64,000 bases of DNA from a virus (taxonomy: Duplodnaviria; Caudoviricetes), in IMG/VR virus record IMGVR_UViG_3300022752_000016; one strand, given 5' to 3'. Shown here piece after piece: positions 7,697-50,361 of the stretch. The notes beneath the pieces are model-generated. The model was not told where the DNA came from. It saw only the letters and a list, made by a program, of their open reading frames with translations, and searched no databases. How positions within the stretch are numbered: the stretch's first letter is position 1; each line of letters opens with the position of its first letter. A program made the position numbers and the translations under genes.

Positions 7697-7962
7697 ATAT
7701 TGAAAATTCAACAAATTTAAATGCCTCAAATGCCATTAATAATCAAATTGCATTTTATGATCGTACTACTAATTTAGTAAACAGAAAATTTGAATTTCCA
7801 ACAGTAAATTTATTATTTGCAGAATCTATGTTAATAAGTAATAATGTATCAAGGGCAAATTTTTTTGAAATACCTGGTCCTTGGGGCAGTACTCCAAGTT
7901 TTTCAGGTATAGCAGGTTCGCCTACTGTAGGCGTAATTCAAAATCCTCAAAAAATTGGATAA
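7693..7962 (+). CDS. Hypothetical protein (possible -1 frame continuation of the upstream gene)
   Basis: ATGA overlap with the upstream gene; 89 aa. Confidence 0.55.
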   Translation: MNIENSTNLNASNAINNQIAFYDRTTNLVNRKFEFPTVNLLFAESMLISNNVSRANFFEIPGPWGSTPSFSGIAGSPTVGVIQNPQKIG

Positions 7963-7966
7963 ATAA

Positions 7967-12412: not shown

Positions 12413-15400
12413 ATGGCACAACGTAATATAGATTTTGGAACATTTCCTGATGATCCAAATGCAGACGCTATTAGAACTGCATTTCAAAAAGTACAGGAAA
12501 ACTTTAACGAGTTATTTTCTATTACCACAAGTCAGGCTGTAATATCAATTAATAGAACACCTGGTGCAGGTATTACAGTAAATTCTCCAATAGGTAATGT
12601 CGTTATTACTGCAAATATTTCGAATGTACAAATAAGCACAAGCACTTTAAGTATAGGTAGGAATTTCGTTAACAGAGGAGCTTCTGGTGGTAATGCAAAT
12701 ATTGTAAATTCAAGTCAAGTTTTAGTAATTGATTTACCAAATACTATTGATAATGTATCAAATGTAAACTTAAGTGCAAATTTAAGTGCAAATTTTGTAA
12801 AAGCCAACACATCAATAATTTCTAACACAATTTTTGCAAATTCAACAATAACAGCAAATAACATTAATGTAAATGTTTCAATAGATACATCAAACATTAA
12901 TTCAACAAACGCAAATATTTCTTCAAATTTATTAGCAGGAAATGCATCTATTTCAGGCAATCTGGTTACAAATGATTTAAGTGTCACTGGTAATGTTACA
13001 ACAAACTTATTACCAAATGCAAACATAGCATACAATTTAGGTTCAAATACTCAAAGATGGAAAGACTTATACCTATCAGGAAACACTTTATACATAGGTA
13101 ATGCGACTATTTCAGTCAGCGGTAATAATTTAGTATTAACCAATCCCATAGGAGGTAATTTTGTTATTACTGGCAATACAACGGTTGCACAGGGTATTCA
13201 AGGAATACAAGGAATATTTGGGTTACAAGGACAACAAGGACTAAGCGGTGAGTACGCAGCTCAAGGAATACAAGGAAGGCAAGGACTACAAGGTTTACAA
13301 GGACTACAAGGACTACAAGGACTACAAGGAATAAGTGGGGAGTACGCAGGACAGGGAGTACAGGGCCTACAAGGATTTTTCGGAATACAAGGTAGACAAG
13401 GTGTCCAAGGGTTACAGGGACTATTTGTTCAAGGATCAACTGGTTCCCAGGGTTTAGATGGCATGCAAGGATCCCAAGGACGACAAGGGATACAAGGTTT
13501 AACGGGTGCTTTTGCAGGTCAAGGTATTCAAGGAAACCAAGGTGTTCAGGGTAGGCAAGGATTACAAGGCTTGGATGGATTTGCAGTTGCTCAAGGTATG
13601 CAAGGAGCACAAGGTACACAAGGTAGACAAGGATTATTTGGAACACAAGGATTTCAAGGATTACAGGGACTGCAAGGATTACAGGGACTGCAAGGATTAC
13701 AGGGTTTACAAGGCGTACAAGGGACACAAGGCGTACAAGGATTACAGGGCACACAAGGTGTACAAGGATTACAGGGCACACAAGGTGTACAAGGACTACA
13801 AGGTTTACAAGGTGTACAAGGCACACAAGGCAGACAAGGAGTACAAGGCACACAAGGCAGACAAGGAGTACAAGGTTTACAAGGTGTACAAGGCACACAA
13901 GGTTTACAAGGTGTACAAGGTACACAAGGAAGACAAGGTGTTCAGGGTACACAAGGTACACAAGGACTACAAGGTGTACAAGGCACACAAGGTTTACAAG
14001 GTGTACAAGGCACACAAGGAAGACAAGGTGTTCAGGGTACACAAGGTACACAAGGACTACAAGGACTACAAGGTTTACAAGGTGTACAAGGCAGACAAGG
14101 AGTACAAGGTACACAAGGTACACAAGGTACACAAGGCCTACAAGGTTTACAAGGTGTACAAGGCACACAAGGAAGACAAGGTGTTCAGGGTACACAAGGT
14201 ACACAAGGACTACAAGGACTACAAGGACTACAAGGTGTACAAGGCACACAAGGCAGACAAGGAGTACAAGGTACACAAGGTACACAAGGTACACAAGGTT
14301 TACAAGGTTTACAAGGCACACAAGGAAGACAAGGTGTTCAGGGTACACAAGGTACACAAGGACTACAAGGACTACAAGGACTACAAGGTGTACAAGGCAC
14401 ACAAGGCAGACAAGGAGTACAAGGTACACAAGGTACACAAGGCCTACAAGGTTTACAAGGTGTACAAGGCACACAAGGAAGACAAGGTGTTCAGGGTACA
14501 CAAGGTACACAAGGACTACAAGGACTACAAGGACTACAAGGGGTACAAGGCAGACAAGGTGTTCAGGGGACACAAGGACTACAAGGAGTACAGGGAACAC
14601 AAGGACTACAAGGAGTACAGGGAACACAAGGCAGACAAGGAGTACAAGGAACACAAGGTACACAAGGTGTTCAAGGACTACAAGGCGTTCAAGGTACTCA
14701 AGGTAGACAAGGAACACAAGGAACACAAGGAGCACAAGGAACACAAGGGTTACAGGGAGTTCAAGGCACACAAGGCAGACAAGGAGTACAAGGTACACAA
14801 GGTACACAAGGTACACAAGGCCTACAAGGTGTACAAGGCCTACAAGGTTTACAAGGTGTACAAGGCACACAAGGAAGACAAGGACTACAAGGACTACAAG
14901 GTTTACAAGGTGTACAAGGCACACAAGGAAGACAAGGAGTACAAGGTACACAAGGACTACAAGGACTACAAGGACTACAAGGTGTACAAGGACCACAAAG
15001 TATACAAGGACCACAAGGTACACAAGGACTACAAGGACTACAAGGACTACAAGGTTTGCAAGGGGTACAAGGACCACAAAGTATACAAGGACCACAAGGT
15101 ACACAAGGACTACAAGGACTACAAGGACTACAAGGGGTACAAGGACCACAAAGTATACAAGGACCACAAGGTTTACAAGGACCACAAGGCGTTCAGGGTG
15201 TACAGGGTTTACAAGGACCACAAAGTATACAAGGACCACAAGGTTTACAAGGACCACAAGGTTTTCAAGGAATACAAGGAATACAAGGACCACAAAGTAT
15301 TCAAGGCGTACAAGGCACACAAGGAACACAGGGTGTTCAGGGTTTACAAGGTGTACAAGGCACACAAGGAAGACAAGGTGTTCAGGGTACACAAGGTACA

Positions 15401-18010
15401 CAAGGTACACAAGGCAGACAAGGAGTACAGGGTACACAAGGTGTACAAGGACTACAAGGACTACAAGGAGTACAAGGCACACAAGGCAGACAAGGTGTAC
15501 AAGGTACACAAGGTGTTCAAGGTTTACAGGGAATACAAGGTATTCAAGGTATTCAAGGTACTCAAGGAACTCAGGGAGTGCAGGGGCTTGATGGGTTCGC
15601 AGTAGCCCAAGGAATGCAAGGGACACAAGGCATACAAGGTGTTCAAGGATTACAAGGTAACCAAGGAGTAGCAGGAATACCACAATCTTGGACATTAATA
15701 ACTTCGAGTCAACTCGCAGGGAGTGATACCAGATATATAGCAAATACAAGTGGAGGACCGTTCACATTAACTTTACCAGCCAGTCCAGTTTTAGGACAGG
15801 TAGTTATTGTAACAGATGGAAATAATTGGGCAGCAAATAATTTAACAATTGCAGGTAACGGATCTACAATTCAAGGATCCTATACTGACCTTATTTTAAA
15901 TATACAAGATATTACAGTAGAACTTGTCTATGACGGTACTACATGGTTAGTAACAGCAACATTGGGTCAACGAGGAGTTCAAGGACAAAGTGGAATACAA
16001 GGACTAGATGGTTTTCAAGGTGCACAAGGAACGCAAGGCATACAAGGCAGACAAGGCTTACAAGGTCCTACTGCTGCACAAGGTGCACAAGGAACACAAG
16101 GAGTTCAAGGAACACAGGGCAGACAAGGCTTACAAGGTCCTACTGCTGCACAAGGTGCACAAGGAACACAAGGAGTTCAAGGTACACAAGGTGTACAAGG
16201 CAGGCAAGGCATACAAGGCAGACAAGGATTACAAGGGCCTACAGCATCACAAGGAACACAAGGAACACAAGGAACACAAGGAACACAAGGGTTACAAGGC
16301 AGGCAAGGATTACAAGGGCCTACAGCATCACAAGGAACACAAGGAACACAAGGAACACAAGGGTTACAAGGGCTACAAGGCAGGCAAGGATTACAAGGAC
16401 CTACAGCATCACAAGGAACACAAGGGTTATACGGCATTCAAGGAAATCAAGGTATTCAAGGTATTCCTGGCACAGTAGCAGCACAGGGTATGCAGGGTCT
16501 TCAAGGACTACAAGGAGTTCAGGGAACGCAAGGAACACAAGGATTACAAGGACCTACTGCTGCACAGGGCGCACAGGGAACACAGGGACTACAAGGTAAT
16601 CAGGGGGTACAGGGCAGGCAGGGATTACAAGGTCCAACTGCTGCACAGGGCGCACAGGGAACACAGGGACTACAAGGTAATCAGGGGGTACAGGGCAGAC
16701 AGGGATTACAAGGTCCAACTGCTGCACAAGGTGCACAAGGAACACAGGGATTACAAGGGTTACAAGGTTTGCAAGGATTACAAGGTCGGCAAGGTTTACA
16801 AGGCCCAACTGCTTCACAAGGAACACAAGGTATACAGGGACTTAATGGATTATTTTCAGCACAGGGTACACAAGGATTACAGGGATCAGCAGGAGCAGGT
16901 GGCGGTGGTAACATAAGTGGTCCAGCAAGTGCTAGTGGTAGGGAAATAGCATACTTTACAAGTTCTACAACAATTGACACAGTACCAACTTTAACTTATG
17001 ATCAACCTAATGGTTATATTCAGGTAAAATCGAAGGATTCATTTGATGGCGGTGTGATACAGTTTTACAGTACTGGCAATACAAATTATACAATTTTTGG
17101 GCGTAAAGATACTGGTAGCAATGTAAGTCTTTGGTTACCCAACACAGTAGGCACTACTGGACAAGTATTATCTATTACTTTAAATTCTGGTCCAAGTGAA
17201 GCTCAATTGGGTTGGTCAACTGCGGCAACATACTTTAACACAGGAAATTATAGAATTCCTATTTATGATCCTGATAATTCAAGTTTAAGATTTTATGGAC
17301 CTACCATAGATAGTGATAACGTTATTACAACACGTAATTTTTGGGCTTCAAATACTATAGGTGGGGCAGATAATCCTTACTTAAGAGTTTCTGCACCATC
17401 TGCAAGGACTTATACACAATTTCAAAGAGCCGCAGGTGGCGCAAATACTACACTGTATTTACCGACAGCCAGCGCAAATTCTAGTTACGGTAGCTATTTG
17501 GGTGCAATTGATAGTCAAAATCAACTACAATGGATGTATGGTTTATGGGGCGATGCTGTACGAAGCGATACTACAAGTGCTGACTTTTATTATCCAACTT
17601 GGGTTAGAGACTATTTTAACGGCGCAAATAATATTGTATATATTTCTTCAAGCACTAGTAAGTTTGGTTATAGGCCAAGCTCAGGTACATTACAAGTTAC
17701 TGTATTAACTCAAACTTCTACTATACAAGATAAAGAAAATCTAAGACCTATTACAAATGCACTCTCAACTTTAAATCAATTTAGTACATATTTATATGAC
17801 AGAAAAGATGGGTCAGCCTCAAACGTTCCTGGTGTAATTGCAGAAGAAGTAGCTAATATCTTTCCTGAACTAGTTACTTATACAAGTAATAACATACCAA
17901 CAGGGGTTAACTATACACAATTTATTCCGTTATTAATTGAAGGAATTAAAAATCTAACAGAAAAAGTTGAGTTATTGGAAACTGAAATTAATAATCTTAA
18001 AAATCAGTAA
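12413..18010 (+). CDS. Collagen-like long tail fibre with C-terminal peptidase S74 intramolecular chaperone
   Basis: Baseplate-anchor-like N-terminus '[18 protein letters not shown]'; ~1100 residues of Gly-X-Gln; C-terminal '[10 protein letters not shown]...GVIAEEV...PELV...VNY...LLIEGIKNL' with Ser and Lys five residues apart and a terminal coiled coil. Confidence 0.9.
13190..16885 (+). repeat. 9-bp-period coding tandem repeat (CAAGGnnnn) in two blocks, 13190-15670 and 15965-16885
   Basis: Visible CAAGGTACA/CAAGGACTA/CAAGGTGTA units with higher-order repeats, e.g. 81-bp units starting at 16550 and 16631 with a third, partial copy at 16712. Confidence 0.95.
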
Positions 18011-44372: not shown

Positions 44373-44672
44373 TTAATTACTTTTTATTTCATCAAATGAT
44401 TTAATAATTTCTAATTGAGAAGGATCATGTTTTTTATTATATGGAACAGGAAGTGATTGCCATTCTTGCTCACTAATATCACAAGCTATAACCACCTGAT
44501 ACTTATGTCCATCACTTGTATATAGTTCAATAGTATCCAGTCCAATTACTGATTTACTTGTTTTTATTAATGCTTCACCTAAGGCTCTGAGTGCCTGTTT
44601 TTCTCCAACAATATATGCTCTACCATTTGGTTCTGCATGATTATGCATATGTAATCTTGATTTAACTTGCAT
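44373..44672 (-). CDS. Hypothetical protein
   Basis: 99 aa; overlaps the DnaE-like stop on the same strand. Confidence 0.65.
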   Translation of the reverse strand: MQVKSRLHMHNHAEPNGRAYIVGEKQALRALGEALIKTSKSVIGLDTIELYTSDGHKYQVVIACDISEQEWQSLPVPYNKKHDPSQLEIIKSFDEIKSN

Positions 44673-46389
44673 TTAATAAATCTTTCAAACTTAGTCGTTT
44701 ATGTTTCTTAACTGTAACATATTCTGTGTTGTTTTTGTAGCCTAATTTACCCACACCCCATACTATTGGGTAATCATGTAAACTAACCGCTTTATCTAAT
44801 ATAACATCAATATAACGATTATTACCTGTTCCTAAGGTAACGAATGTAATATATTCTTTTGGTTTACTTTTAAATACACGATAATTGGCTACTAGTCCAC
44901 AAAACTCTACCTCACCTGGTTTCCTCAACTCAGTACAAAAAGGTAAAAACTTTTTACTATGCCAATGACCCTGTGTCATTAATTCATTGATTTCATTGCC
45001 TTCGTACACACTTGTTATTGCCCCTGCCAATTTGGCCTCATGATGGTATACCCAACGGCTATAACTACCTTGGCAATGTTTCAAAACAGCACGCCAAAAC
45101 TTTTCAGGATTATGTGCTTTTTGATACGCAATTGCCCATATCAAACGTCCTAAATTAATCGCATGTGCCCTACATAATCCAAAATTACTTAATTCTGTTA
45201 ATGCATAAAAAACTTCTTCTTTGTTTTCATGGTTACCTATCAAATCCATAAACTCAAATATTTTTTCTTCATTACGTTTAGCAAAGGCACGACGCCACAT
45301 ATCTGCTTCATATTGGTTACAATCTAATAGTTTACTAATTAACATGATTGCATCATCTTCAAACACAATAGTATTATCAAATGTGTCTTTGCTCCAATCA
45401 CGGAAAAAACTGGCTTTGCGACGACCTTGTGTGGCAACTGGTCTAATTAATGCTGTAGCTAATACACAATCTTCACGTTTGGTTGGTTTTATAGCCCTAA
45501 ATAATCTACGCATTGCAGGACTCTCTGCCTGTGTGACTCCCAAAACGTTACCGCTACGTAATAACTCAGCAGTTTTTTCATCATATTCAGGATAGTCCAA
45601 CAAGTTTTTTGTAGGGTCTATTTCATAGAGTTGAGATAGTCCTCGATTGGATAATATGTCAATTTTAAAATGTTCTAAATCTTCAATTTCATATTTGTCT
45701 AATAGTATTTGGTTTTCTGCATTGATTAAACTTTTCGGGACAGCACGATCAAATATTAATATACCACCACAATGTTTACTGATACAACGTTTTTTACCTA
45801 ATAATTTATTAACCAAGCGTTTTGCTTCATCAGCAAATTCTGGTACAACTTTGTCTAAATCTATATTTCTAGGTAATCTACCCTTCGCACCATATCGTTT
45901 TGCTGCCTCACGTATGGCACTTTTCTCTTTATATGTAACATAATTGCTTACCCGTGCTGATTGACCTTTCCAATGATTAAAGATACGATTCATCACTGTT
46001 TCTTGTTGATAATGCGGGAAGTCTAAATCAATGTCTGGTAAATCATCACGTTTTGGGTTCATAAAACGTGCTAATGGTATTTTTTCTTTAATTGGATCAA
46101 CATCACTAATACCAAGTAACCAACATAATAAACTACTTCCTGCACTACCACGAGTCATATGTGGTATATCTTTAGTTAATTCTAATATTTCTACTACACG
46201 TAAGAAGTGTTTTGCGAAACCTAATTTTGCTATGAGTTCTAGTTCTTCTTCTAACCTATTTTCGTATTCTATGTCGTTTGGTAAATTTCTTGTAAATTTC
46301 TTTATTAATATTTCTAGTTCTTTATATCTACTTTCCATATTTGTGCCTATTGTATGTGCCATAAGTTTTTTATTTATTTGGTAAAACAA
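44662..46389 (-). CDS. dnaE: Miniature family-C DNA polymerase (DnaE core plus OB fold, no PHP domain); true start may be 46362 or 46338
   Basis: 'TRGSAGSSLLCWLLGI..VDP', catalytic 'PDIDLDF', 'SKHCGGILI', 'KIDILSNRGL', 'GVTQAES', 'FGLCRAHA' and a C-terminal OB-like region. Confidence 0.85.
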   Translation of the reverse strand: MFYQINKKLMAHTIGTNMESRYKELEILIKKFTRNLPNDIEYENRLEEELELIAKLGFAKHFLRVVEILELTKDIPHMTRGSAGSSLLCWLLGISDVDPIKEKIPLARFMNPKRDDLPDIDLDFPHYQQETVMNRIFNHWKGQSARVSNYVTYKEKSAIREAAKRYGAKGRLPRNIDLDKVVPEFADEAKRLVNKLLGKKRCISKHCGGILIFDRAVPKSLINAENQILLDKYEIEDLEHFKIDILSNRGLSQLYEIDPTKNLLDYPEYDEKTAELLRSGNVLGVTQAESPAMRRLFRAIKPTKREDCVLATALIRPVATQGRRKASFFRDWSKDTFDNTIVFEDDAIMLISKLLDCNQYEADMWRRAFAKRNEEKIFEFMDLIGNHENKEEVFYALTELSNFGLCRAHAINLGRLIWAIAYQKAHNPEKFWRAVLKHCQGSYSRWVYHHEAKLAGAITSVYEGNEINELMTQGHWHSKKFLPFCTELRKPGEVEFCGLVANYRVFKSKPKEYITFVTLGTGNNRYIDVILDKAVSLHDYPIVWGVGKLGYKNNTEYVTVKKHKRLSLKDLLNAS

Positions 46390-46431: not shown

Positions 46432-46455
46432 TACATAATACTATAAGGATATTTT

Positions 46456-46713
46456 ATGTCAAGAACTTTTACTGGTGAAGCAAAAAATAAATTAACCCAA
46501 CTTATTAATGAAGGTTGTGCAGTGATGCATGAAATTGAAACATTGCAAGGTGGGCTTAGTGATACCATTAAAGCTGTAGCAGAAGAATTAGAAGTAAAAC
46601 CAAGTGTGCTTAAAAAAGCTATTCGTATCGCTCATAAAGCTAATTTGGGTGCTGCAAATAAAGAACACGAAGAACTCAACGAAATTTTGGAAACGGTTGG
46701 AAAAACACTTTAA
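46456..46713 (+). CDS. Double-stranded DNA-binding protein (T4 DsbA-like)
   Basis: Small helical protein '...EIETLQGGLSDTIKAVAEELEVKPSVLKKAIRIAHK', DsbA-type pattern. Confidence 0.65.
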   Translation: MSRTFTGEAKNKLTQLINEGCAVMHEIETLQGGLSDTIKAVAEELEVKPSVLKKAIRIAHKANLGAANKEHEELNEILETVGKTL

Positions 46714-47366: not shown

Positions 47367-47656
47367 ACAACGATATAATTTTAAACATATATTCTTGGGT
47401 AAAACAGGATTGGAAATCTAATCCTTTAAGATTTTTTATAGAATTATTGGCTTGGACTATAAGTATTGGTTGTGCCTTGATTATGGCACTAACTGTACCT
47501 AACCCTCCTCTTATGATATTATATCCATTGTGGATATTAGGATGTATACTGTATGCTTGGGCATCATACTCAAGAAAATCATTTGGTATGTTGGGAAATT
47601 ATTTGTTACTTACTTCAGTTGATATTATTGGATTAGCAAGGTTATTAATACAATGA
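47363..47656 (+). CDS. Small membrane protein (about 3 TM)
   Basis: Three hydrophobic stretches in 97 aa. Confidence 0.7.
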   Translation: MNNDIILNIYSWVKQDWKSNPLRFFIELLAWTISIGCALIMALTVPNPPLMILYPLWILGCILYAWASYSRKSFGMLGNYLLLTSVDIIGLARLLIQ

Positions 47657-50361
47657 GTTATATAGACGCCATACACGATAGAGATAGTGATAAAATTTAT
47701 GTAGTAGAACGTACTACAGATGGCAAACGTACCTATAAAGAGTTTCCAGCTAATTATACATTTTACTATAGTGATCCTAAAGGTAAATATCGCAGCATAT
47801 ACGGAGATACTGTAGCCAAATTTAGCACAAGAAAACGTAGTGAGTTTGAAAAAGAACGACGGATTCATGCAAATAAAAAATTATTTGAAAGTGATATTAA
47901 CGTAGTTTATCGATGCCTTTCGGAAAACTATCTTAAAGTAGAAGCTCCAAAATTACACACTGTGTTTTTTGATATTGAAGTAGACTTTGATCCTGAAAAA
48001 GGATTTAGCCCAACAACTGATCCATTTAATCCTGTCACTGCAATTAGTTTGTATTTGGATTGGTTAGATCAGTTAGTTACCCTATGTATTCCACCAAAAC
48101 ATATGAGCCAAGAAACGGCCAATGATTTGACTAAACACATGAACAATACTATGCTATTTGATAATGAAAAAGAAATGTTTGAAACATTCTTTCAACTTAT
48201 TGAAGATGCAGATGTATTGACAGGTTGGAATAGTGAAGGATACGATATACCATATATGGTTAATCGTGTAACACGTATAATGAGTAAGGATGATACCAGA
48301 AAATTCTGTTTACTTGGACAAACTCCTAAAATGCGTACATATGAACGATTTGGAAAAGATGAGCAAACTTATGATTTAGTTGGTCGTATTCATATGGATT
48401 ATTTGCAGTTATATAAGAAGTATAACTATGAATCACGCCATAGTTATGCACTAGATTTTATTGGCGAAATGGAAGTAGGAGAAAACAAAACAAAATATGA
48501 AGGTACATTAGATCAATTGTACAACAAAGATTTTGTCACGTTTTTAGAATATAATCGCCAAGATACAATGTTACTTGTTAAAATTCATAATAAACTTAAA
48601 TTCTTAGATTTAGCCAATGCACTAGCGCATGAAAATACTGTATTGATTCCCACAGTAATGGGTAGTGTGGCTATGATTGAAATGGCTATTATGAATGAAG
48701 CACATGAACGTGGTTTAGTAGTACCTGATAAAAAACGAAAGGAACATAGTGATGAACAACAAGCAGCAGGTGCCTTTGTTGCTACGCCCAAAAGGGGTAT
48801 ACACGAATACGTCGGAGCGGTCGATATCAACAGTCTATACCCGTCAGCAATCCGCGCTCTTAACATGGCGCCAGAAACCATTGTTGGACAAATCAGACAA
48901 ACTCTTACAGACCAATACATGAAAGAAAAGGGCAATAAACTTGCCCGTGAAAAAAAATATTATAAAGATGGTGATGATGATGTCACTGGAGCGATTCTAT
49001 GGGAAGGATTATTTGGTAGTTTAGAATATACTGCTATAATGAATCGTGAACGTGGAACTATGCTTACACTAGATTATGAAGATGGACGAAGTGTAGAAAT
49101 GAGTGCCTGTGAAATATGGAAACTTGTATTTGATAGTCATAAACCATATATTCTCAGCGCAAATGGTACTATCTTTAGACATGACCAAGAAGGTGTGATC
49201 CCAGGATTATTAACACGTTGGTACAGTGATCGTAAAGTTATGCAGAAAAAATTAAAAGAAAGCACAACTGATGAAGATAAAGAATACTGGGATAAAAGAC
49301 AACTTGTTCGTAAGATTTTACTAAACTCAGCATATGGTGCATTGTTAAATGAACATTGTCGTTTTTATGATAAACGTATTGGTCAAAGTGTTACATTAAC
49401 AGGTCGGCAAATCGTTAAGCATATGATGAGTACCATTAATGAAGTTATTACTGGTGAATACAATCACGAAGGTTCAGCAATTGTATATGGTGATACTGAC
49501 AGTTGCTATTTCAGTGCATACCCAATTCTAAAATCACAAATAGAAAATACGGAAGTAGACTGGAATAAAGACCTATGTATTCAATTATACGACAATATTG
49601 CTGAACAAGCGAATCAATCGTTTCCTAGTTTTATGGAACGTGCATTTCATTGTCCAAGAAAAAATGGAGAAATTATTGTAGCTGGTCGTGAATTGATTGG
49701 TGATCGTAGCATTTTTATTACTAAAAAACGTTATGCAATTAATATTTACGATAAAGAAGGTAAGCGTAAAGACGTAAATGGGAAACAAGGTGATATCAAA
49801 GCAATGGGACTTGACTTAAAACGTGCAGATACTCCGAAATTCATACAAGAATTTTTAATGCATATTTTAGAAATGGTACTAGCTGGTAAACAAAAAGAAG
49901 ATATCATAGAAAAAATTAAAACGTTTAAAAATATATTATCTGAGCGTGATAGTTGGTTGAAGGGTACACCTAAATCAGTAAACAAGCTTACATACTATGG
50001 TGAATTAGAAAAAAACAGTAAAACAGGCAAAGTAAACATGCCTGGACATGTTCGTGCTGCACTTAACTACAACTATCTACGTAAGGCTAATAGTGATAAC
50101 TACAGCATGAAAATCGTAGATGGGATGAAAGTTGTGGTATGCAAATTAAAAAGTAATCCATTAGGGTTTACAAGTATTGCATATCCCACAGATGAGTTAC
50201 GTTTGCCTAAATGGTTTTGTGAATTACCATTTGATGATATTGAGATGGAACGTGGTTTAGTAGATGAAAAGATTGATAACCTATTAGGTGTGTTAAATTG
50301 GGACTTAAGACGTAGTACAGATACTACAACAACATTTGATGAGTTGTTTACATTTGGTTAA
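47653..50361 (+). CDS. Family B DNA polymerase (gp43-like)
   Basis: Exonuclease 'FFDIEV', 'GWNSEGYDIPY', 'YNRQD'; polymerase 'VDINSLYPS', 'KILLNSAYG', 'YGDTDS', 'KKRYA'. Confidence 0.97.
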   Translation: MSYIDAIHDRDSDKIYVVERTTDGKRTYKEFPANYTFYYSDPKGKYRSIYGDTVAKFSTRKRSEFEKERRIHANKKLFESDINVVYRCLSENYLKVEAPKLHTVFFDIEVDFDPEKGFSPTTDPFNPVTAISLYLDWLDQLVTLCIPPKHMSQETANDLTKHMNNTMLFDNEKEMFETFFQLIEDADVLTGWNSEGYDIPYMVNRVTRIMSKDDTRKFCLLGQTPKMRTYERFGKDEQTYDLVGRIHMDYLQLYKKYNYESRHSYALDFIGEMEVGENKTKYEGTLDQLYNKDFVTFLEYNRQDTMLLVKIHNKLKFLDLANALAHENTVLIPTVMGSVAMIEMAIMNEAHERGLVVPDKKRKEHSDEQQAAGAFVATPKRGIHEYVGAVDINSLYPSAIRALNMAPETIVGQIRQTLTDQYMKEKGNKLAREKKYYKDGDDDVTGAILWEGLFGSLEYTAIMNRERGTMLTLDYEDGRSVEMSACEIWKLVFDSHKPYILSANGTIFRHDQEGVIPGLLTRWYSDRKVMQKKLKESTTDEDKEYWDKRQLVRKILLNSAYGALLNEHCRFYDKRIGQSVTLTGRQIVKHMMSTINEVITGEYNHEGSAIVYGDTDSCYFSAYPILKSQIENTEVDWNKDLCIQLYDNIAEQANQSFPSFMERAFHCPRKNGEIIVAGRELIGDRSIFITKKRYAINIYDKEGKRKDVNGKQGDIKAMGLDLKRADTPKFIQEFLMHILEMVLAGKQKEDIIEKIKTFKNILSERDSWLKGTPKSVNKLTYYGELEKNSKTGKVNMPGHVRAALNYNYLRKANSDNYSMKIVDGMKVVVCKLKSNPLGFTSIAYPTDELRLPKWFCELPFDDIEMERGLVDEKIDNLLGVLNWDLRRSTDTTTTFDELFTFG

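Follow-up and report, generated by a model that had tools for sequence, protein, structure and literature searches.

The closest published relative of the polymerase described here is the "phage-specific minimal version" of Pol III alpha reported from the T4-like group 2.2 jumbo phages, in which it occurs beside the family B polymerase (PolB) as two separate proteins with genes far apart; a role in strand synthesis or in repair has been proposed for it (Iyer et al. 2021, Viruses 13:63, PMC7824862). The bacterial enzymes of family C include DnaE1, DnaE3, and the error-prone DnaE2/ImuC (Timinskas et al. 2014, PMC3919608), and the PHP domain has been described as "universally present" in family C polymerases (NAR 2026, PMC12926913). 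Older overviews of family C enzymes from bacteria and viruses list no PHP-less form.

The DNA analyzed here (the window, a stretch of 64,000 nucleotides) comes from an uncultured aquatic T4-like giant phage with PolB as its main replicase; a megablast search returned no near-identical phage record. One of its genes specifies an intact, half-size DNA polymerase of the bacterial type (family C), a minimal form in a single chain that is referred to below as mini-DnaE and that consists of palm, short thumb, fingers, and an OB fold that binds single-stranded DNA (ssDNA). The minus-strand open reading frame (44662..46389) specifies 575 aa when read from a TTG codon. However, homologs are 554 to 566 aa long, the first residue in more than 100 close homologs is the methionine of the sequence MESRY, and a conserved promoter-like box sits downstream of the TTG, and therefore the likely coding sequence is the shorter one listed in Table 1. 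An initial reading made from the letters of the window (the sequence-only reading) had given the size as about 560 to 575 aa; the upper figure describes the open reading frame, and the protein itself is probably 558 aa. As that reading had also stated, mini-DnaE and one small open reading frame are both on the minus strand, opposite to their neighbors, and the GC skew flips locally at the pair, matching the strand switch relative to all neighboring genes. Nearby are a ferritin-like gene, a DsbA-like late regulator, a 2OG-Fe oxygenase, and, 1.3 kb from mini-DnaE, the complete PolB that had been claimed to lie alongside, a protein of 902 aa in which Pfam recognized both the exonuclease and the polymerase domains.

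Table 1. Features of the mini-DnaE locus, in positions of the window
Feature	Position	Strand	Basis or remark
Coupled 99-aa partner ORF	44373..44672	minus	Start overlaps polymerase stop codon
mini-DnaE CDS, PHP-less family C polymerase	44662..46338	minus	558 aa + stop
C-terminal tail LKDLLNAS	44665..44682	minus	Close-clade pattern K-L-(K/Q)-(D/E)-L-(L/I)
C-terminal OB fold (residues 473-552)	44683..44922	minus	VIA-align of AF2 model
Palm, reduced thumb, fingers (residues 1-450)	44989..46338	minus	VIA-align, phmmer vs PDB
Codons K225-I-D227, third catalytic Asp = E. coli D555	45658..45666	minus	Aligned to K-M-D-F of Taq alpha
Codons D102-I-D104-L-D106 (PDIDLD)	46021..46035	minus	Aligned to PDIDTD of Taq alpha; invariant in alignment A1
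5' leader with two GGCA boxes	46339..46361	minus	Second box ends 5 nt before ATG
ATAAATA late-type promoter box	46371..46377	minus	Sequence match
Sigma-70-like promoter candidate TTGACA-16-TATTAT	46435..46462	minus	11/12 consensus matches
Complete family B DNA polymerase, gp43-like	47653..50361	plus	PF03104 exonuclease + PF00136 polymerase

The domains of mini-DnaE were placed by profile searches and with a structural model. Pfam matched PF07733 (E 2e-41; 142.6 bits, cut-off 23.9) and PF17657 (E 4e-14; 52.9 bits, cut-off 22), and phmmer against the PDB aligned residues 28 to 437 (575-aa numbering) with residues 307 to 788 of E. coli alpha and with Taq alpha at E ~1e-26. In the AF2 model (pLDDT 90.4, pTM 0.88), residues 1 to 450 superposed on residues 284 to 820 of E. 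coli alpha and on the counterpart in Taq alpha that begins at residue 299 (VIA-align, Z 27-36). About 20 linker residues join this region to the OB fold, which matched the OB domains of Taq and M. tuberculosis alpha as well as PriB/SSB (VIA-align, Z 7.6-8.4; rmsd ~2.1-2.5 over 76 to 85 residues), and the chain stops 6 residues after it. D104 and D106 correspond to D401 and D403 of E. coli alpha. Across alignment A1, which comprises 45 homologs of mini-DnaE down to 31% identity, the invariant residues were R63-G64-S65, D102/D104/D106, K225/D227, R299-P300, R349, and H392. The catalytic Asp motifs PDIDLD and KID align with those of Taq and E. coli Pol III alpha and are kept throughout the homologs, and the motifs for dNTP binding are likewise intact.

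Pfam gave no PHP match in mini-DnaE, the model of which begins at the equivalent of E. coli residue 284, and tblastn (E ≤1, of limited sensitivity) found no separate PHP-like open reading frame in the 64-kb window. No segment of mini-DnaE aligned with residues 820 to 960 of E. coli alpha, which hold the beta-clamp-binding/HhH domain, and mini-DnaE lacks both this domain and the tau-binding end. The domain placements from the AF2 model and VIA-align therefore uphold the anatomy that the sequence-only reading had proposed, namely three catalytic Asp motifs, palm and fingers, a C-terminal OB fold, and no PHP domain.

Membership in family C is indicated by a Pol-beta-like palm with a GS motif, the three catalytic Asp residues, and alpha-type fingers (Pfam, A1, and the Z 27-36 superpositions). 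NCBIfam assigned mini-DnaE to none of its cellular subgroups, with every score under the respective cut-off: 164.7 bits versus 939 for NF004225 (DnaE2), 155.4 bits for the generic model, far below its cut-off, 138.6 bits versus 1002 for NF004226 (the DnaE1 equivalog), and 46.6 bits versus 1043 for TIGR01405 (PolC). Identity with DnaE1 was rejected on the NF004226 score and on the lack of PHP, clamp-binding, and tau-binding domains. Membership in DnaE2/ImuC was rejected on the NF004225 score and on the missing PHP domain, since DnaE2 is full-length with an inactive PHP domain. PolC was rejected on the TIGR01405 score; the combination of a PolC-type profile and an inserted DnaQ exonuclease was not found. 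Mini-DnaE resembles cellular DnaE in its family C palm and fingers, in its catalytic residues, and in having an OB domain, and it resembles DnaE2 in being without the tau-binding C-terminal domain, but the cellular family C groups all keep the PHP and clamp-binding domains and mini-DnaE has neither.

Relatives of mini-DnaE are numerous. A word-indexed search scored 8000 candidates and gave 2031 clusters at E ≤1e-5, of which the best 120 were proteins of 554 to 566 aa with 76 to 92% identity from aquatic metagenome contigs. In an exhaustive search, 14,099 representatives reached E ≤0.001, and 625 of these reached E ≤1e-30. In a FastTree phylogeny of the core (128 rows, midpoint root, SH-like supports only), a branch with 100% support parted the PHP-length relatives of ~1000 aa from an 87-row group with 61 of the 62 PHP-less forms, and mini-DnaE of the window was placed in a clade of seven rows, starred in the tree. 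A phylogeny against the DnaE groups had been suggested along with the sequence-only reading; what the core tree provides is the separation of the PHP-less forms from all PHP-length relatives sampled. Mini-DnaE belongs to a large PHP-less clade, the members of which come only from viral and metagenomic sequences. No close relative was found in cultured phages, the best record being the uncultured 484-kb LR756508.1 at 38% identity, and the literature on Melnitz and pelagiphage transcriptomes mentions dnaE for hosts or kits only. As a side observation, the PolB signal in LR756508.1 (260623-266900; L088/L089) is divided between open frames of 1022 aa and 625 aa that are ~4 kb apart, and PolB of this phage may be split or interrupted.

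The ratio dN/dS of mini-DnaE was 0.03 to 0.07 against four relatives, which points to strong purifying selection. Decay of homologs into pseudogenes, which would speak against a working enzyme, left no sign in these ratios or in the constant length of the homologs.

Comparison with the split polymerases of the group 2.2 jumbo phages indicated likeness in kind together with remote similarity in sequence. The A1 profile found an N-terminal unit (positions 6-94, E 4e-8 to 4e-6) in open reading frames of 175 to 320 aa in RaK2, GAP32, and Atu_ph07, and a second unit (positions 212-312, E ~4e-3), located far away, in GAP32 and Atu_ph07 only. Like the group 2.2 form, mini-DnaE is a PHP-less catalytic core beside PolB in a T4-like giant phage. 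However, the group 2.2 form is split into pieces of ~175 to 320 aa, whereas mini-DnaE is one chain of 558 aa, as in hundreds of relatives, and it differs further in its full fingers and OB fold, in the 99-aa partner coupled to it, and in its AGGCA leader. Mini-DnaE is a larger, one-piece variant of the group 2.2 kind of minimal Pol III alpha.

A PHP-less DnaE core fused to an SF2 helicase was found in five relatives (P0217, P0220, P0229, P0233, and P0247). These fusions fall in the same PHP-less clade as mini-DnaE and are nested among the stand-alone mini forms in the tree, but they carry an N-terminal ResIII/DEAD helicase that mini-DnaE lacks, and tblastn, with limited sensitivity, found no such helicase in the window. 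One of the fusions (P0233, 1184 aa) also has a Hom_end-associated Hint (intein) domain at its N terminus (PF05203, E 8e-22).

The 99-aa open reading frame that accompanies mini-DnaE begins 8 nt ahead of the polymerase stop codon. Its family comprised 62 homolog clusters with 15 invariant residues, and dN/dS was 0.10 and 0.23 in the two closest pairs. The partner diverges much faster than the polymerase (39% versus 77% identity in locus L001) and is missing beside mini-DnaE in a clade at 57 to 59% identity. Neither Pfam nor PHROG has a family for it, and in fold searches Foldseek returned nothing at E ≤0.001 and the highest Z from VIA was 4.6. An S-D-G-H turn followed by a helix, as in DRGH nucleases, raised the idea of a small His-Me finger nuclease, which was dropped because the fold searches gave it no support. 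Assignment as Imm32, an Atlas lead that applied to 11% of one cluster, was likewise rejected, with E 0.16 in 2 of 26 members.

The gene neighborhood of the window was kept in the closest relatives (L008, L009, L011, and L012; 84 to 91% identity). In contrast, L010 (84%) and a group at 69 to 77% identity (L001 and L013 to L024) share only the polymerase and the small open reading frame with the window. In L001 to L004 the pair has the tail sheath gene on one side and gp13/gp15 genes on the other, and here too it is on the strand opposite to its neighbors, and in most relatives mini-DnaE is located among structural genes, far from PolB. Because the pair alone is common to unrelated neighborhoods, it behaves as a module, and the polymerase and small open reading frame are a self-contained two-gene unit that moves as one from one phage neighborhood to another.

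The region upstream of mini-DnaE contains two elements that are conserved in relatives. The ATAAATA motif that the sequence-only reading had located on the minus strand is present, and the TAAATA box, although only 6 to 7 bases long in AT-rich DNA, was found in the leaders of 70 of 77 distinct relatives versus 20% of 1018 control open reading frames, usually 30 to 60 nt ahead of the ATG. Between this box and the start codon are repeats of AGGC(A/T), at least two copies of which were present in 67 of the 77 leaders versus 1.9% of the controls, in the form of 2 to 4 repeats spaced by 9 to 12 nt and extending to the start codon. The leader in the window has only two GGCA boxes, TGGCA (46361-46357) and AGGCA (46348-46344). 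Over 990 kb of loci, with both strands considered, 22 of 23 clusters with at least three AGGCA copies were mini-DnaE leaders. Leaders of gp32-type genes for single-stranded-DNA-binding protein (SSB) in related viral contigs had the same element, with at least two copies in 72 of 74 distinct leaders; these belong to a different subclade from the window, and no SSB gene was found in the window. The record with L036 carries both mini-DnaE and a gp32-type gene with the AGGCA box.

No Rfam family corresponds to the mini-DnaE leader. The leader resembles the operator of T4 gene 32 in being unstructured and A-rich, with repeated short boxes up to the start codon, often with a 5' hairpin ahead, and in sharing its element with the SSB gene. 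It differs in that the box is AGGCA and also serves a polymerase gene, and SSB as the binder is putative. A short perfect hairpin directly follows the TAAATA box in many mini-DnaE leaders (for example, L021, L041, L051, and L074), and in some hairpins, such as TTTGCC-TAA-GGCAAA, the first AGGCA makes up one arm of the stem. The sigma-70-like candidate lies upstream of the late box, is directed toward mini-DnaE, and overlaps with the 5' end of the divergent DsbA-like gene; it was not conserved in the upstream regions of relatives, and the count of such sites was no higher than in shuffled sequences. A similar TTGACA-17-TATTAT precedes the AGGCA leader of the gp32-type gene in L090.

Taken with the anatomy, these observations suggest, with about an even chance of being right, that mini-DnaE is a late, accessory, non-proofreading polymerase for gap filling or repair, the translation of which is tied to an SSB/ssDNA circuit. 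The enzyme would be made late in infection, behind the conserved late-type box, a timing suggested by the excess of the box in the leaders of relatives over controls. It would then act beside PolB as an accessory, non-proofreading polymerase of low processivity, a role suggested by the complete PolB in the window and in LR756508.1 and by the lack of a clamp-binding segment, and would work on replicated DNA before packaging, by filling single-stranded gaps or extending recombination intermediates. Since the AGGCA box is common to the leaders of mini-DnaE and of the gp32-type SSB genes, translation of mini-DnaE is probably under the same repressor as the SSB gene, for which SSB, by analogy with T4 gene 32, is the most likely candidate; ssDNA would titrate the repressor away and translation of mini-DnaE would rise. 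The link to an ssDNA circuit is drawn from the frequency of AGGCA repeats in both sets of leaders. The more specific proposal, a PHP-less viral family C clade with an AGGCA-box translational regulon that includes the SSB gene, so that free ssDNA would set the level of a gap-filling polymerase, is put forward tentatively and with appreciably lower confidence. Lesion bypass or mutagenesis is a possible activity.

The C-terminal tail of mini-DnaE bears on another potential role. Hydrophobic C-terminal tails of T4 and RB69 gp43 hold the gp45 clamp, and PolB in the window ends in TTFDELFTFG (50332-50361, plus strand), presumably a tail of this kind. In the close clade of mini-DnaE the tail follows a hydrophobic-x-acidic-hydrophobic-hydrophobic order like that of the PolB tail FDELFTFG, a resemblance we infer from the residue pattern, and it could bind the clamp and so give processivity. 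Mini-DnaE might accordingly be a second replicative polymerase that works with PolB and uses the phage clamp through this tail, with roles that might include synthesis of one strand, extension of primers like that by B. subtilis DnaE3, or late recombination-dependent replication. Strand synthesis has been proposed for the split relatives (Iyer et al. 2021, PMC7824862), and mini-DnaE adjoins PolB in the window and in the closest relatives. However, an early replisome gene would not be expected to have a late-type promoter, the clamp-binding domain is missing, the tail pattern is kept in the close clade and not beyond, and the usual position of mini-DnaE among structural genes is distant from PolB. 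We therefore consider a second replicase unlikely, although it survives better than the other alternatives.

The sequence-only reading had suggested a non-proofreading accessory polymerase with a possible link to deazaguanine-containing DNA. The accessory, non-proofreading part is compatible with the anatomy, the late-type promoter, and the purifying selection; the deazaguanine link is not supported. An enzyme dedicated to copying or repairing DNA that contains 7-deazaguanine, possibly sugar modified, might be expected from the FolE, QueD, and MazG-like genes located 10 to 14 kb away in the window and from the shared neighborhood of the closest relatives (L008, L009, and L012). However, relatives at 69 to 84% identity have the pair in unrelated neighborhoods, and the complete LR756508.1, the nearest record in place of any cultured phage, has a mini-DnaE homolog and PolB without FolE or QueD. 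Five partial IMG/VR records with mini-DnaE also lack FolE, which is weak evidence because these records are 29 to 54% complete. A dedicated role of this type is doubtful.

A mutator or translesion polymerase of the DnaE2 kind, which would bypass lesions or diversify phage genes, is equally improbable. The proofreading domain is missing from mini-DnaE, and the best NCBIfam profile was that of the error-prone DnaE2 (165 bits versus 155 for the generic model), but this margin of 9 bits is not meaningful at a score far under the cut-off of 939. Furthermore, Pfam recognized no imuA- or imuB-like partner genes among the neighbors in the window, and in the tree the PHP-less proteins are separated from every PHP-length relative sampled. 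Least probable of all is that the polymerase is packaged in the virion and injected with the DNA to act when infection begins, or that the two genes are a selfish cassette without benefit to the phage. These ideas would fit the late promoter, the sheath and neck genes that surround mini-DnaE in many relatives, and the cassette position that differs between genomes. However, mini-DnaE has no capsid-targeting or protease-site extension, because it begins directly in conserved palm helices, no nuclease or integrase is beside the pair in the loci read, and the strong purifying selection found throughout a very large clade speaks for a function in the host phage.

The AGGCA leader common to mini-DnaE and the gp32-type SSB genes offers an experimental way into the coordination of SSB with an accessory polymerase in giant phages. 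The PHP domain has been described as "universally present" (PMC12926913); mini-DnaE belongs to a very large, strongly conserved viral clade without PHP and clamp-binding domains. At 558 aa, mini-DnaE would be smaller than any other natural Pol III alpha core in one piece among the forms compared here, which would make it a convenient model of the abilities of the isolated core. The pairing of mini-DnaE with PolB also shows that T4-like giant phages routinely pair bacterial-type with archaeo-eukaryotic-type polymerases.

AGGCA-like boxes were also observed away from the mini-DnaE and SSB leaders. The sole cluster of at least three copies outside mini-DnaE leaders in the 990 kb precedes a 92-aa open reading frame in L058 (433-776, minus strand) with a coiled-coil N terminus, a hydrophobic C terminus, and four AGGCA boxes upstream, which may belong to the same AGGCA regulon. 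In the window, a second GGCA pair (TGGCA-N8-AGGCA; 7722-7734, minus strand) is located in a gap between plus-strand genes (7697-7966), with no minus-strand open reading frame after it. Nearly all of the plus-strand AGGCA clusters came from a dense tandem array of 9-nt units (CAAGGCACA/CAAGGCAGA) at 13819-16386 (plus strand), inside an open reading frame of 1865 aa (12413-18010), where the repeat codes for collagen-like Gly-X-Y.
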